The notes: a model not told the origin generated them from the sequence alone. 64,000 nucleotides of DNA from Candidatus Kerfeldbacteria bacterium (GCA_043799405.1 JAZDNT010000002.1:107320-171319); one strand, 5' to 3'; numbered from the stretch's first letter, positions 24,194-56,787 are shown. Numbers and translations are program-made.

Positions 24194-25798
24194 ATGCCCT
24201 CCCACGTCATCTACGCTCGCAAATCCACCGAGTCCGACGACCGCCAGGTCCTCTCGATAGACTCCCAAATCCAAGAGCTGAAGACGCTCGCGCTGCGTCG
24301 TGGCATCACGGTCGCGGATGTGCTGACCGAGGCGCGTTCAGCCAAGGCACCAGGGCGCCCGGTCTTCGGCGAACTCATGCGGCGCGTACGTCGCGGCCAA
24401 ATCGGCGGCATCCTCTGCTGGAAGATGGACCGGCTTGCACGAAACCACCTCGATCATGGCGTAGTCCTTCAGGCACTCGCCGATCGGCAGCTGCGGGAGG
24501 TCATCACCTCGGACCGAACCTACACGGGCGACGGCAACGACCGCTTCCTCGGCAACTTCGAGCTCGGCATGGCCACGAAGTTCATTGATGACCTTCGCGC
24601 GAACGTGAAGCGCGGGAACCGCGCACGCTTCCAGCGCGGCTGGCCGAACTACCGTCCGCCCGCCGGCTACCTCGAGGACCACGCGACCAAGACGATCGTG
24701 AAGGACTCCGTGCGCTTCGACCTCATCCGCCGGGCATGGGACCTGCTGCTTACCGGCACGGTACGCCCGAGCCGGATCTTGGTCGCCCTAAACGACGAGT
24801 GGGGCTACCGCTCCCGGCAGACCAAACAGCGGGGTGGCAGCCCGATGTCGCTGTCCGGCCTTTACGGGATCTTCGAGAACCCGTTCTACGAGGGCCTGAT
24901 CCGTCTCTCCAGCGGCGAGACCTACAAGGGCGCGCACGAGCCGATGGTCGCGCCCGAGGAGTTCGAACGGGCCCAGGAGTTGCTCGGTCGTCCAAGTCGA
25001 GCCCGGCCGGTGCACCACGACTTCACTTTCTCGGGGCTTCTTCACTGCGCCTCGTGCGGCCGGGCGTTAGTCGCCGAGGCGCACATCAAGCCGAGCGGCA
25101 AGCGCTACGTCTACTACCGCTGCCACCGCAGGCGTATCGGCGAGACCTGCTCCGAGCCGGCGCTGCCTGAGGAGATCCTCCGCGAGCAGCTGGTCCAGGA
25201 CCTCAAGCGGATGCGCCTGACACCCGAAGCGGCCGGCTGGATCCGCGACAACCTCAAACACTCGCTCGAGGGCGAGGTCGGCCAACTTCGCACCGTCCGG
25301 GCATCACTGGAGAACGCCGTCCGGCAGGCAGGTGCCGAAGAAGAGACGCTCCTCACCCTGCGGCTCCGAGGCTCGATCGACGACGGGATCTACGAGCGTC
25401 GCAAAACGGCGCTTCAAGACCGCAGGGCGCAACTGCAGCTACGACTCGACCGGCCCGATCAATCGCCGGAGGAGCTGCTAGAGCGCGTGGAACAGGCTCT
25501 CGCCTTCTCGCTGCACGCCCCGCAAGTCTTCCGTGATGGCACGCGGGTTCAACAACGGCAGATCGTGGAGGTGGTCGGGTCGAACTATCGGGTCACCCGG
25601 AGAAAAGCGCTCTACACAGCGAACAAGCCGTTCTCCCTGTTCACGGAAGCAACGGCTTCTTCGCTCTGGTGGACCGTGGCGGATTCGAACCGCCGACCTC
25701 TGCAATGCGAATGCAGCGCTCTACCAGCTGAGCTAACGGCCCTTATTCTGGTTCCCCCACCAGGAATCCCCGCCTGCCTTAAGCTCTGCCCCCACTAG
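24194..25798 (+). CDS. large serine recombinase (integrase)
   Basis: N-terminal resolvase domain (VIYARKSTESDDRQVLSIDSQ, catalytic Ser context). Recombinase domain. Zinc ribbon (CASCGRALV...YYRCHRRRIGETC). Coiled-coil region. The ORF has no stop until 25798, so its last ~45 codons are tRNA-Ala, the spacer and part of tRNA-Arg. Confidence 0.9.
   Translation: MPSHVIYARKSTESDDRQVLSIDSQIQELKTLALRRGITVADVLTEARSAKAPGRPVFGELMRRVRRGQIGGILCWKMDRLARNHLDHGVVLQALADRQLREVITSDRTYTGDGNDRFLGNFELGMATKFIDDLRANVKRGNRARFQRGWPNYRPPAGYLEDHATKTIVKDSVRFDLIRRAWDLLLTGTVRPSRILVALNDEWGYRSRQTKQRGGSPMSLSGLYGIFENPFYEGLIRLSSGETYKGAHEPMVAPEEFERAQELLGRPSRARPVHHDFTFSGLLHCASCGRALVAEAHIKPSGKRYVYYRCHRRRIGETCSEPALPEEILREQLVQDLKRMRLTPEAAGWIRDNLKHSLEGEVGQLRTVRASLENAVRQAGAEEETLLTLRLRGSIDDGIYERRKTALQDRRAQLQLRLDRPDQSPEELLERVEQALAFSLHAPQVFRDGTRVQQRQIVEVVGSNYRVTRRKALYTANKPFSLFTEATASSLWWTVADSNRRPLQCECSALPAELTALILVPPPGIPACLKLCPH
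25667..25742 (-). tRNA. tRNA-Ala (anticodon CGC), CCA encoded
   Basis: Manual cloverleaf: GGGCCGT/ACGGTCC acceptor stem with G3:U70, D-stem GCTC/GAGC, anticodon stem CTGCA/TGCAG, loop TTCGCAT, T-stem GGCGG/CCGCC. 76 nt. Confidence 0.9.
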
Positions 25799-25858
25799 GA
25801 ATCGAACCTAGATCTATCCCTTAGGACGGGATTGTTCTATCCCTTGAACTATGGGGGC
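25787..25858 (-). tRNA. tRNA-Arg (anticodon CCU), no encoded CCA
   Basis: Manual cloverleaf: GCCCCCA/TGGGGGC acceptor stem, D-stem GTTC/GAAC, anticodon stem ATCCC/GGGAT, loop GTCCTAA, T-stem CTAGG/CCTAG. 72 nt. G at position 32 is unusual. Confidence 0.8.
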
Positions 25859-25982
25859 TCAGGCCGAGGCGGGCGGGTCTATCCATTGTCCCGCCATTCA
25901 GCGGGATCCCGCCGATATCTGAATACATCAATTATGGTGGCGGAAAACTACGGGGGTAAATGGCTAATTGTTAACGTTCTTA

Positions 25983-48407: not shown

Positions 48408-49004
48408 TCATGCCGCGAGGAGCTGTTCCTCGAGACGATGGTAGAGCCCGCGGTATTCCCATTTTCGTGCGATAGCCTGTAAAACCTGCCGGATTACATC
48501 CTGTATGATCATCTGGAGGTCACGCTTGTTATTGCGTTCGTACGCATCGAGAATGCGTTCAGCGGGCGGCAGAAGTACAAGAATCGTTTCTTGTGACAGC
48601 TGAGCAATTTTTCCACGTAAATGTTTCGGATCCGCGTCAGTCGTCACTTGGAGCGGCACCCGCTCATTCCCGCCTGAGAACTGTAGTACAAGGTCAATTT
48701 TATCCCTCTGGTCCTCTTCCGGAGTTCCATGGCGGGCAGTGATAAGGGGGTGATCCCTGAGCAGATCAACAATAATATCCTCGGCAATGTTGCCCGGCTG
48801 CTTTTCGTGTATGGTCTGCGGATGGAACCAGTCTTGAACGTGGCCAGGGTCAAAGAGTTTTTCAGCCATTCGGTCGAGTACCTCGGGATCAGCGGCTGCC
48901 GCCTGTTCCGGCGCTACCTTCTTTTCAGTAACGAGCGTATTGATCTTGTGCGCGAGACGAAGATCGTCATCGGACGCTTGCACTGGTTCTCCGCGTTCAT
49001 GCAT
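48408..49004 (-). CDS. hypothetical protein
   Basis: The ORF extends to 49109, but that part is tRNA-fragment/hairpin sequence. The first plausible start is MHERGEP at 49004. No family recognised. Confidence 0.45.
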   Translation of the reverse strand: MHERGEPVQASDDDLRLAHKINTLVTEKKVAPEQAAAADPEVLDRMAEKLFDPGHVQDWFHPQTIHEKQPGNIAEDIIVDLLRDHPLITARHGTPEEDQRDKIDLVLQFSGGNERVPLQVTTDADPKHLRGKIAQLSQETILVLLPPAERILDAYERNNKRDLQMIIQDVIRQVLQAIARKWEYRGLYHRLEEQLLAA

Positions 49005-49258
49005 ATATAAAATGATACCCGTTCTATTGCGGTACGACAAGATGTTAGGTAACGCATTGGTGGTGACCCGTGAAGCCTGCCTTCGCGCAGGCAGGGACTC
49101 GTCCCGCACCTTGTCATTTATTATTTATAGGAATGCGGGATCCCGCTTTGCGGGAAACCTCCAACCCACTGCTTAACCCCGCACCACTCGCGGAGTTTAT
49201 CCCGCCGAATGGCGGGGCTCGGGTACGGGGCGGAGGAGGCAGCTGTTCGTGATTCGCT

Positions 49259-49334
49259 TGGTGACCCGCGGAGGACTCGAACCTCCAACCCATTGCTTAA
49301 GAGGCAATTGCTCTACCAATTGAGCTAGCGGGCC
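49259..49334 (-). tRNA. tRNA-Lys (anticodon CUU), CCA encoded
   Basis: Manual cloverleaf: GGCCCGC/GCGGGTC acceptor stem, D-stem GCTC/GAGC, anticodon stem ATTGC/GCAAT, loop CTCTTAA, T-stem GGAGG/CCTCC. 76 nt. Confidence 0.9.
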
Positions 49335-49474
49335 AAGCGAATCACGAACTGGTGATGTAAAATTGCTCTACCGATTGCCTGCCCCGCCGAACCCCGGATC
49401 TAGCCCGGGGGAAGGCGGGGAGCTATCGGGCCACGATATGACGAATGCCAGTGTAGTCGATTCTTCCGAATTTA

Positions 49475-50113
49475 TCAAGCACGGGGCGTCCGACGTACGA
49501 TTCCAACGATGGATTGCCAAACGCCGTGCCTCCGTTCCGGCGTCTTGAGCATGTGCAATATTCCGGGGAGGATCGAGAGCAGGATAATGAGCGCAATGAT
49601 CGGTAGGAGGTAGCGGTCGACGTTCGTGACCTTTGTCCCGAGCCAGTACCCCGCAAGCGTCAACCCGGCAGCCCAGATAGCTCCGCCGATCACGTTAAAG
49701 GTAAGGAATTTTTTCCAGTCCATTTTCGCGATACCGGCAACGATGGGAGCGAACGTCCTGACGACCGGAACGAAACGCGCGAGTACGATGGTTTTCGTAC
49801 CGTGTTTTTCGTAGAATGCCTGTGCCTTATCCGCATTCTCTTTCTTGAAGAAGCGGGAGTTCGGTCTGTTGAACACGCGCGGGCCATAGAGGAATCCGAA
49901 GAAGTACCCGACCTGCGTGCCGACGACCGATGCGAGGAACAGGAGGATCGTCAGCGGAACGATGCTGAAGAAATGCTGTGATGCGAGGAAACCGGCGGTG
50001 AAGAGTAGCGAGTCCCCGGGGAGGAAGAAACCGATGAGCAGGCCGTTCTCAGCGAAGATAATTGCTATGACACCTGCGTACCCGATCGCACGGATGAGTG
50101 ATTCGAGGTTCAT
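49475..50113 (-). CDS. DedA-family (VTT domain) membrane protein
   Basis: FAENGLLIGFFLPGDSLLFTAG...GTKTIVLARFVPVVRTFAPIVAG are DedA signatures. Confidence 0.85.
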   Translation of the reverse strand: MNLESLIRAIGYAGVIAIIFAENGLLIGFFLPGDSLLFTAGFLASQHFFSIVPLTILLFLASVVGTQVGYFFGFLYGPRVFNRPNSRFFKKENADKAQAFYEKHGTKTIVLARFVPVVRTFAPIVAGIAKMDWKKFLTFNVIGGAIWAAGLTLAGYWLGTKVTNVDRYLLPIIALIILLSILPGILHMLKTPERRHGVWQSIVGIVRRTPRA

Positions 50114-56177: not shown

Positions 56178-56253
56178 TGGTGCGCCCGGAGGGAGTCGAA
56201 CCCCCGACCCTCTGGTCCGAAGCCAGATGCTCTATCCACTGAGCTACGGGCGC
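56178..56253 (-). tRNA. tRNA-Arg (anticodon UCG), CCA encoded
   Basis: Manual cloverleaf: GCGCCCG/CGGGCGC acceptor stem, D-stem GCTC/GAGC, anticodon stem TCTGG/CCAGA, loop CTTCGGA, T-stem GGGGG/CCCTC. 76 nt. Confidence 0.9.
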
Positions 56254-56489
56254 ATGATATAATGTTGGATTGAAATGCGACTTTTCTTCATTTTGATCGT
56301 TCGTTCTAGTCGCTTTGCCTCGCTGAGTGTAGCACAACGTTTTTCAAAAACAAGTTTCCAAGGAACATACGGTTTCGTATAACGGCTATAACCCGAATTG
56401 TGTTCATGGATTCGGCGATGTACGTCATTGGTACAACCGATGTAGAATCGACCGTCAACCGTACTTTGAATTATGTACGCGGAATACAT
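56244..56489 (-). CDS. GIY-YIG nuclease family protein (UPF0213-like)
   Basis: MYSAYIIQSTVDGRFYIGCTNDVHRRIHEHNSG. The stop overlaps the tRNA-Arg 5' end by 10 nt. Confidence 0.8.
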   Translation of the reverse strand: MYSAYIIQSTVDGRFYIGCTNDVHRRIHEHNSGYSRYTKPYVPWKLVFEKRCATLSEAKRLERTIKMKKSRISIQHYIMRP

Positions 56490-56787
56490 TGTTGTTCCAC
56501 TGAGTCCCGACATCCCGATGCACAATGCGGTCGGGAGTCGGGATCCCGATTCCGCCTACGGCGGACATCGGGGCTACGGGCGCACGGGGTTGCGTTGCGT
56601 GATATCCATTTCACTACGAGGGCACGTGCGAAAGGGTATCACTTTTTCTAATTAAAAACAATCTGTCATGTCTGCCAGAGCGCCGACCCCGACCACCCCT
56701 CCGCTTCGCGGTTTCCCCTCCTCAATTGAGGAGAGGAAAATGTCCCGAGCACTGTCGAGGGACATTGGGGAGGTCTTTCCACCCGAG

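Follow-up and report, generated by a model that had tools for sequence, protein, structure and literature searches.

A tRNA-Lys gene nested in a dead copy of itself and flanked by a long leader-trailer helix in Candidatus Kerfeldbacteria

We analysed a 64,000-nucleotide (nt) stretch of a Candidatus Kerfeldbacteria genome (GCA_043799405.1, JAZDNT010000002.1:107320-171319; the window) and found that its live tRNA-Lys(CUU) gene, on the minus strand, is nested in the anticodon-stem region of an older tRNA-Lys gene, which is split into positions 1-29 on one side and positions 25-76 on the other, in the manner of a Russian doll. The dead halves later took up small GC-rich palindromes in their D arm, anticodon loop and T arm, and the live gene is bordered by two complementary arms that can pair into a leader-trailer helix. 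This anatomy, composed of a nested dead copy, mobile palindromes and a conserved flanking helix, is well supported. From it we infer how the insertions took place and what the helix does. The explanation that we prefer, with somewhat more confidence than doubt, is that the tRNA gene was repeatedly replaced by insertion of a whole copy and that the flanking helix serves as a processing stem.

A live tRNA-Lys gene nested in a dead one

The live gene (49259..49334, minus strand, as are all features of the locus) has an encoded CCA and was recognized by ARAGORN and by the Rfam tRNA model (69.8 bits). On its 5′ side lies dead fragment A, in which positions 1-12 (GGCCCGATAGCT, 49421..49432), assigned by similarity to the live tRNA, are separated from positions 13-29 (CAATCGGTAGAGCAATT, 49361..49377, a 94% match to the live tRNA) by ins1, a 43-nt GC-rich hairpin built from an inverted repeat in the D arm (49378..49420). 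An 11-nt junction (TTACATCACCA, 49350..49360) and the leader arm of the helix (GTTCGTGATTCGCTT, 49335..49349) lead from there into the live gene. On the 3′ side, the trailer arm (AGCGAATCACGAAC, 49245..49258) is followed by dead fragment C, whose first piece, positions 25-34 (CAGCTGCCTC, 49236..49245), starts on the last base of the arm. A 59-nt hairpin insert with the stem CCCCGTACC/GGTGCGGGG interrupts the dead anticodon loop between positions 34 and 35 (49177..49235), and positions 35-55 follow (49156..49176, a 95% match). The dead T loop holds ins2, a 54-nt double hairpin in which TCCCGC..GCGGGA occurs twice and gives rise to CGGGATCCCG (49102..49155), and continues with its remainder CGAGTCC (positions 56-62, 49095..49101). 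The dead T stem is interrupted by ins3, a GC hairpin formed by the inverted repeat CTGCCTGCGCGAAGGCAGGCT (49074..49094), and the fragment closes with the 3′ acceptor strand and ACCA (TCACGGGTCACCA, 49061..49073), these last two tRNA pieces again being assigned by similarity to the live tRNA. Dead pieces, inserts, junction, arms and live tRNA together cover the minus strand from 49432 to 49061 without a gap.

A first-pass annotation of the window had noticed three of the tRNA fragments and the GC-rich hairpins between them, and all of these held up: the fragment at 49061-49070 is identical to the 3′ end of the tRNA (87% match over 49061-49075), those at 49156-49176 and 49361-49377 are the pieces 35-55 and 13-29 given above, and inverted-repeat and hairpin scans recovered every hairpin. 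Our analysis added two pieces, one at 49420-49433, which copies the 5′ acceptor end and D stem of the live tRNA, and one at 49236-49245, which copies positions 25-34. Once these two are included, the fragments add up to an entire second tRNA-Lys with the live one in its midst. The earlier suggestion of a decayed second tRNA copy invaded by GC-rich repeats was essentially right, except that the copy is split around the live gene and does not lie beside it. When fragments A and C were joined and the inserts removed, ARAGORN identified the product as tRNA-Lys(ctt), at a relaxed threshold only; the T arm of this joined outer copy is disrupted, and one nucleotide is missing.

The locus was compared with related loci (L001, L002 and so on), which were reached via two proteins neighbouring the window tRNA-Lys. 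Nine contigs of relatives were reached via the decarboxylase, and four of the nine lack a tRNA-Lys(CUU) locus or are cut inside the tRNA. The closest relative, L002, in which the neighbour protein is 90% identical, has the tRNA, an identical trailer, the spacer and fragment C, including the piece 25-34 (found also in L086 and, as a diverged copy, in L092) and a longer version of ins3. It has no ins2, no inner part of the anticodon-loop insert (the 25 nt CCCCGCCATTCGGCGGGATAAACTC), no fragment A and no leader arm. The absence of ins2 and of part of the anticodon-loop insert marks these as recent. In the window, the flank upstream of fragment A aligns to, and is orthologous with, the leader of the L002 tRNA; together with a promoter-like pair shared by the two loci (see below), this puts fragment A at the ancestral 5′ position and the trailer of the live gene at the ancestral 3′ position. 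Five genomes have kept the hairpin in the dead anticodon loop, a conservation that we attribute to shared ancestry. As a selected structure this hairpin was rejected, because its RNAalifold covariation term of +0.78 gives no support and in only 1 of the 11 stem pairs had both sides changed.

In L086, where the spacer measures 852 nt, two dead layers surround the live gene in onion order. The outer 5′ piece consists of GACCCGATAG, a 58-nt insert and CTCAATTATAGA; the inner 5′ piece consists of GGGCACATAGCTCAGTTGG, an insert and GAAGAGCAGCTT, and is followed by the leader arm, the live tRNA and the trailer arm; downstream, the inner 3′ piece ends in CCTGCTGTGCCCACCA and the outer one in CTCGGGTCACCA. 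Acceptor strands are complementary layer by layer (GACCCGA/TCGGGTC in the outer one, GGGCACA/TGTGCCC in the inner one), and in allele the inner layer differs from the outer one as well as from the live gene. From the pairwise match of the acceptor strands, which rules out simple tandem copies, it follows that each layer is a single former gene split by whatever it now encloses. Nesting was also found at other tRNA genes. In L042, positions 1-33 of tRNA-Phe recur at 100% identity 156 nt upstream of the gene and positions 34-73, also at 100%, recur 124 nt downstream of it, and on L056, a Kerfeldbacteria contig, tRNA-Phe and tRNA-Gly are nested too and have a flanking helix. In L001 (1-952), the whole module of tRNA, spacer and 3′ half is inverted relative to the gene for the 198-amino-acid (aa) neighbour protein. 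We propose that a whole copy of the tRNA gene was inserted into the resident copy, repeatedly replacing it, and that the driver would be a tRNA-targeting mobile system, neither integrase-type integration nor simple tandem duplication.

The same debris could have been left by two independent partial tandem duplications, one of the leader with positions 1-29 and one of positions 25-76 with the trailer, which then decayed neutrally, the inverted repeat being a functionless by-product of template switching. Template switching at quasi-palindromes is an established mutational mechanism, and fragment A shares with the live tRNA a derived T28, the other state being C28 in L002, L084 and L085. Junction and leader also weakly resemble the outer leader, with the same segment involved in the window and in L085, but this likeness is not significant (p ~0.11 each). 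Moreover, the sequence after fragment C is unlike that after the live tRNA, the inner layer of L086 represents another allele than the copies outside and inside it, and three lineages have retained the helix through compensated changes. On balance, we consider duplication in place unlikely.

A further reading, that these are attL/attR scars of a phage or integrative element inserted at tRNA-Lys by an integrase, with its body later deleted, is in our view very unlikely. Past the insert in the dead anticodon loop, the 3′ copies restart at anticodon position 35, which is a typical crossover site; L086 carries serial 3′ copies downstream, and 17-20-nt repeats of the 3′ end stand 80-270 nt downstream of many tRNAs of the candidate phyla radiation. 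Positions 35-76 are indeed copied as an att-type direct repeat, but the homology really restarts at position 25, and a hairpin was inserted at 34/35. In addition, displacement extends to the 5′ halves, each of which pairs with its own 3′ half, and the spacers measure ~70-140 nt in every genome (~83 nt in the window), with no cargo. No integrase or transposase domain was found in the 20 large open reading frames (ORFs) scanned over ~38-64 kb, which are housekeeping genes or of unknown function. Scans for the junction of spacer and fragment C gave no match among viral contigs, and among metagenomes only the L002 contig was matched again. The first-pass annotation had offered scars of repeated integration and excision as one reading, which stands loosely, as layered insertions; in the integrase sense it fails on four counts, because no integrase or transposase domain turned up in the ORFs scanned, the repeats lie so close together, the 5′ halves are displaced and the acceptor strands match pairwise.

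An artefact of assembly or binning in this metagenome-assembled genome is next to impossible in our judgement. The window does show a sharp G+C step at 26 kb, and the breaks of contigs L084 and L092 inside the tRNA mark the region as hard to assemble; however, the same architecture with orthologous junctions recurs in independent assemblies from NCBI, JGI, ENA and Logan. The contigs L084, L092 and L003 all end inside tRNA-Lys, at position 1 of each, with TAGCTCA.. or GGTAGAGC.. These three independent contig ends suggest that repeated 5′ tRNA pieces break short-read assemblies.

The genes surrounding the locus are ordinary and encode a DedA/VTT membrane protein, a pyruvoyl arginine decarboxylase, a glycosyltransferase, RNase Y, YmdB and a Mur ligase. 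The neighbour 3′ of the locus (48408-49004, minus strand) encodes the 198-aa protein, for which we found four relatives only among 5.8 billion sequences and no Pfam domain. This protein shares 100% identity with a hypothetical protein on a 302-kb contig of a Candidatus Kerfeldbacteria metagenome-assembled genome, which places the window in the candidate phyla radiation. As the first-pass annotation had suspected, the N-terminal extension of ORF 48408-49109 is spurious: all four homologues are 198 aa long, and the true start is the ATG at 49004. Besides repeats that break assemblies inside tRNA genes, dead pieces can mislead the annotation of both tRNAs and ORFs, as this ORF illustrates.

The leader-trailer helix

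The two 15-nt arms that abut tRNA-Lys (49245-49259, which includes A76, and 49335-49349) are perfectly complementary, as had been noted in the first pass. The pairing extends over 17 nt when G1G2 and C74C75 are included, and over 22 nt at 91%. Elsewhere in the window, no match to the arm pattern was closer than 3 mismatches. We then surveyed leader-trailer complementarity at 246 tRNA genes from the window and 82 related loci, ~240 of which had enough flank to be scored. The longest exact complement is usually 4-7 nt, and the 17 nt of the window tRNA-Lys are the maximum. Exact complements of at least 11 nt were found at six tRNAs, five of them in the window, L056 or L074, and L085 and L086 add two further helices of at least 11 nt. 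Exact helices of this length are rare and occur almost entirely in Kerfeldbacteria-like loci.

The helices of L085 and L086 are perfect and abut the tRNA ends in the same way as that of the window, with other sequences. L085 has the order CATCGGTCTGCCTGG, tRNA, (CCA)GGCAGACCGATG, and its arms CATCGGTCTGCCTGG and CCAGGCAGACCGATG form 15 base pairs (bp); L086 has the order CACCGGTCCGCCTGG, tRNA, (CCA)GGCGGACCGGTG, and its arms CACCGGTCCGCCTGG and CCAGGCGGACCGGTG form 17 bp, or ~24 bp with a 2-nt bulge. Two differences separate the arms of L085 from those of L086, and both are compensated. A three-way alignment that included the window comprised 17 pairs; in 9 of them both partners had changed, single-sided changes were absent, and 98% of the cells were paired. 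Not one of 500 shuffles did as well, and pairing in slid controls was 31-48%. Predicted duplex energies of the three helices were -25 (window), -33 and -39 kcal/mol, compared with -5.6 kcal/mol for L002, which lacks the leader arm. In L056 and L074, helices flank tRNA-Phe and tRNA-Gly, and their sequences differ between both genomes. The helix was always accompanied by nested debris, and its arms occupy nearly the whole gap between debris and tRNA.

A sigma-70-like promoter is predicted upstream of the outermost dead piece (49450..49478, minus strand), with a -35 box TTGATA at 49478-49473, a 17-nt spacer and a -10 box TACACT at 49455-49450. It is the only promoter-like site upstream on this strand, as judged by consensus match, and a sequence scan of the locus found no terminator-like site following it. 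The pair TTGAT-17-TA(C/T)ACT is conserved upstream of the outermost piece or of the tRNA in L002, L085 and L086. This placement of the only promoter-like site, with no terminator-like site after it, makes it probable that the live tRNA is transcribed as part of a long precursor, which would contain both arms. The predicted fold of a 394-nt precursor (-189.5 kcal/mol) is again a Russian-doll structure: the outer dead acceptor strands pair together, each insert forms its own hairpin, and the live tRNA and the helix make up a separate domain.

According to the model that we favour, transcription would start at the old promoter 5′ of the outermost dead piece and the live tRNA would be produced within a long, highly structured precursor. 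Stacking of the 15-17 bp helix on the 7-bp acceptor stem would create about two turns of double-stranded RNA at the tRNA ends, which is the size of an RNase III substrate, and by analogy the helix would most likely function as an endonucleolytic, RNase III-like processing stem. Cleavage could free the 3′ end of the tRNA from a trailer rich in GC hairpins that would stall exonucleases. A dedicated processing helix had been among the possibilities raised in the first pass; the compensated helices in two relatives and the promoter-like site upstream speak for it, and the function itself we infer. We also considered the helix as a folding clamp that keeps the debris from mispairing with the live tRNA, and rejected this as its main role, since shuffling the arms does not lower the cloverleaf probability.

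Several observations weigh against replacement by whole copies combined with a processing stem. The cloverleaf probability of the live tRNA in the 394-nt precursor is 0.77 for the wild type and ~0.91 when either arm is shuffled. All helix cores are perfect Watson-Crick duplexes with no G-U pair, while the tRNA itself keeps G2-U71, which fits copying or correction of the arms at the DNA level at least as well as selection at the RNA level. L002 has the same tRNA and trailer without a leader arm, so the helix is dispensable. Complete Lys helices number three, and base-for-base homology of the window arm with the arms in L085 and L086 is uncertain, which weakens a strict counting of covariation. 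Finally, the T28 shared by fragment A and the live gene suggests local duplication or gene conversion, and not a foreign origin, for that fragment.

The inverted repeats might instead act in DNA, as terminal repeats or as cruciform or hairpin arms of a mobile arm-tRNA-arm cassette that is moved into cognate tRNA genes by a structure-specific nuclease, for example of the GIY-YIG type, one arm being copied from the other. We regard this as possible, though doubtful. It draws on the perfect Watson-Crick cores with no one-sided change, on arms that fill almost all the space between debris and tRNA, the window trailer arm ending exactly where fragment C starts, on the co-occurrence of helix and nesting at Lys, Phe and Gly loci, and on GIY-YIG ORFs located directly upstream of co-oriented tRNAs in four loci (window tRNA-Arg(TCG), L054, L026 and L074). 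However, no identical cassette was seen in two places, L002 has a trailer arm without a leader arm, and the Lys locus has no gene for a GIY-YIG or other nuclease. The motif ACATCAC, which belongs to the junction just outside the leader arm, is also kept between the window and L085. There is, besides, one sense-orientation G-U in the extension of the L056 Phe helix, and there are two G-U pairs in the dead-anticodon hairpin. We retain the processing stem as the preferred role of the helix.

Palindromic inserts and GIY-YIG ORFs at tRNA genes

The inserts have the form TCC(C)GNC..GNCGGGA, with GGGATCCC where two of them abut. The window contains 3 copies of CGGGATCCCG, compared with 0.16 expected, each in the debris at one of three tRNA loci. 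A generic scan for TCCSSN..GGA hairpins gave 18 hits, barely above the 10.4 in shuffles, and the CGGGATCCCG count is the usable statistic. A subfamily of 65-70 nt (..ATCGGGATCCCGAC..GTCGGGA) is found after G10 in the window tRNA-Arg(TCG), the tRNA-Phe of L042 and the tRNA-Lys(UUU) of L088, and a related insert follows G10 in the outer piece of L086. That the same tRNA position is hit in different tRNAs and genomes points to targeted insertion. As in a palindromic family, the inserts are multi-copy, share ends and core in three genomes and are polymorphic among relatives, ins2 being the case in point.

The same kind of debris is present at the two other tRNA loci of the window. The 5′ fragment of tRNA-Arg(TCG), positions 1-19 (56496-56583, minus strand), is interrupted behind G10 by a GC-rich palindromic insert of 69 nt, which is homologous to the G10 inserts in the tRNA-Phe of L042 and the tRNA-Lys(UUU) of L088. 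At the tRNA-Arg(CCT)/tRNA-Ala locus (25743-25920), tRNA-Arg(CCT) is followed at a distance of 19 nt by a copy of its 3′ end (25754-25768), and upstream, at 25860-25915, there are GC hairpins, including CGGGATCCCG at 25902, and a D-arm remnant GGATAGA. Next to this tRNA-Arg/Ala pair, the segment from 26.0 to 26.5 kb has 34% G+C and is nearly free of genes; it is followed by a pair of very large ORFs, of 1061 and 1396 aa, the former reading as a repeat-rich and probable surface protein. G+C content is 57-71% before this point (1-26000) and 49-64% after it (26000-64000), and the step may be an island boundary or an assembly mis-join.

Debris was also noted in related loci. L042 carries, at 300-400, a tRNA-Lys copy with a 24-nt insert in its T loop and without the 3′ acceptor strand; in L003, a downstream 3′ fragment of tRNA-Lys has a 24-nt insert at the T loop as well, and both inserts contain AGCTTGTC. 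At the neighbouring tRNA-Phe of L042 (520-960), the 5′ debris is three layers deep and holds several hairpin inserts. A second tRNA-linked element was seen in L056 (2875-3600), where an identical 68-nt core (GAAGGGCGCGAG...GGAGCGAGGAG) stands after tRNA-Lys and after tRNA-Pro, each core having before it an inverted copy of the T loop of that tRNA and after it 20 nt that directly repeat the 3′ end of the tRNA. Similar cores stand behind tRNA-Arg in L056 and tRNA-Lys(UUU) in L088 (3790-3920). At ~15 of the surveyed loci, 17-20 nt of the tRNA 3′ end are repeated directly at a distance of 80-270 nt downstream.

The GIY-YIG ORF of the window (56247-56489, minus strand; 81 aa, 89 aa in the NCBI version; Pfam E 6.5e-13) lies directly upstream of tRNA-Arg(TCG) and co-oriented with it, in the slot between the displaced 5′ fragment and the live tRNA. 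Its stop codon TAG coincides with positions 8-10 of the live tRNA, so RNase P cleavage would remove the stop codon. In L054, displaced 5′ fragments likewise lie upstream of the ORF. A nuclease ORF inside the inserted unit was found at these two loci and not at the Lys locus, where the 26-nt gap between fragment A and the live tRNA-Lys contains no ORF. The protein is a bare catalytic domain of 81-89 aa with no DNA-binding domain; it scores 17 bits with a group I intron endonuclease model whose cut-off is 56, and a homologue search matched the protein itself only.

A bolder proposal, which we put forward tentatively and would not expect to hold, is that tRNA and perfect inverted repeats form a self-replacing cassette. 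This would home into the anticodon-stem region of the resident cognate gene, destroy and replace it and leave the onion layers behind, with GIY-YIG nucleases mobilising it and the TCCCG..CGGGA palindromes as non-autonomous riders that target tRNA loops. Such a cassette, if it exists, would represent a mobile element of a new class, one that carries its own target gene as cargo. As a DNA-level repeat, the helix would mark a mobile element carrying a spare copy of the gene it breaks; as a processing stem, it would mean that tRNA maturation in the Kerfeldbacteria lineage borrows the logic of rRNA precursors. In tiny, streamlined genomes clean single-copy tRNA genes are expected; these loci are instead hot spots of layered self-replacement and palindrome invasion.

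Comparison with known systems

A full-text literature search found no description of nested tRNA genes or of tRNA leader-trailer helices in these bacteria. The locus resembles archaeal split, permuted and multi-intron tRNA genes in that tRNA pieces are parted by GC-rich helices and a long helix stands beside the tRNA ends. In contrast to these, the locus belongs to a bacterium (its tRNAs are of bacterial type with CCA encoded, RNase Y is present, and the best protein match is to Candidatus Kerfeldbacteria) and the pieces are dead, and for both reasons the archaeal intron or split-tRNA reading was rejected. As to bulge-helix-bulge motifs, the predicted precursor folds show plain hairpins only, no dedicated search for the motif having been run.

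With tRNA scars at att sites, the locus shares direct partial 3′ copies downstream of an intact gene and breakpoints in the anticodon or T loop. It differs from them in that no integrase was found among the ORFs scanned, there is no element body, the 5′ halves are displaced, the nested halves pair and a whole tRNA was inserted. The palindromic inserts recall REP/BIME, Rickettsia palindromic elements and GC clusters, which are also short, multi-copy GC-rich hairpins, polymorphic between close relatives and located in or next to RNA genes. In Neurospora mitochondria, GC-rich PstI palindromes flank tRNA genes. Unlike such palindromes, those described here carry TCC(C)GNC..GNCGGGA ends, joined where two abut, and one subfamily sits after G10 of three tRNAs.

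Phage T4 has a free-standing GIY-YIG homing endonuclease gene, segB, in its tRNA cluster (PMC2330249). The small GIY-YIG gene that adjoins tRNA-Arg(TCG) in the window is similarly placed beside tRNA genes. Unlike SegB, its product is a bare catalytic domain with a weak match to intron endonucleases, and the Lys locus has no such ORF.

The closest parallel to the processing stem that we propose is the leader-trailer helix of bacterial and archaeal rRNA precursors, which is cut by RNase III and is needed at a length of at least 17 bp (PMC11404451). The Kerfeldbacteria helix differs in that it flanks a single tRNA and not rRNA, takes in the encoded CCA (L085 and L086) or A76 (window), is perfectly Watson-Crick paired and comes with nested tRNA debris. 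Like the rRNA helices, it is formed by complementary segments that directly flank the mature RNA, it undergoes compensatory change while its sequence drifts, and it reaches a length of ~17 bp or more.

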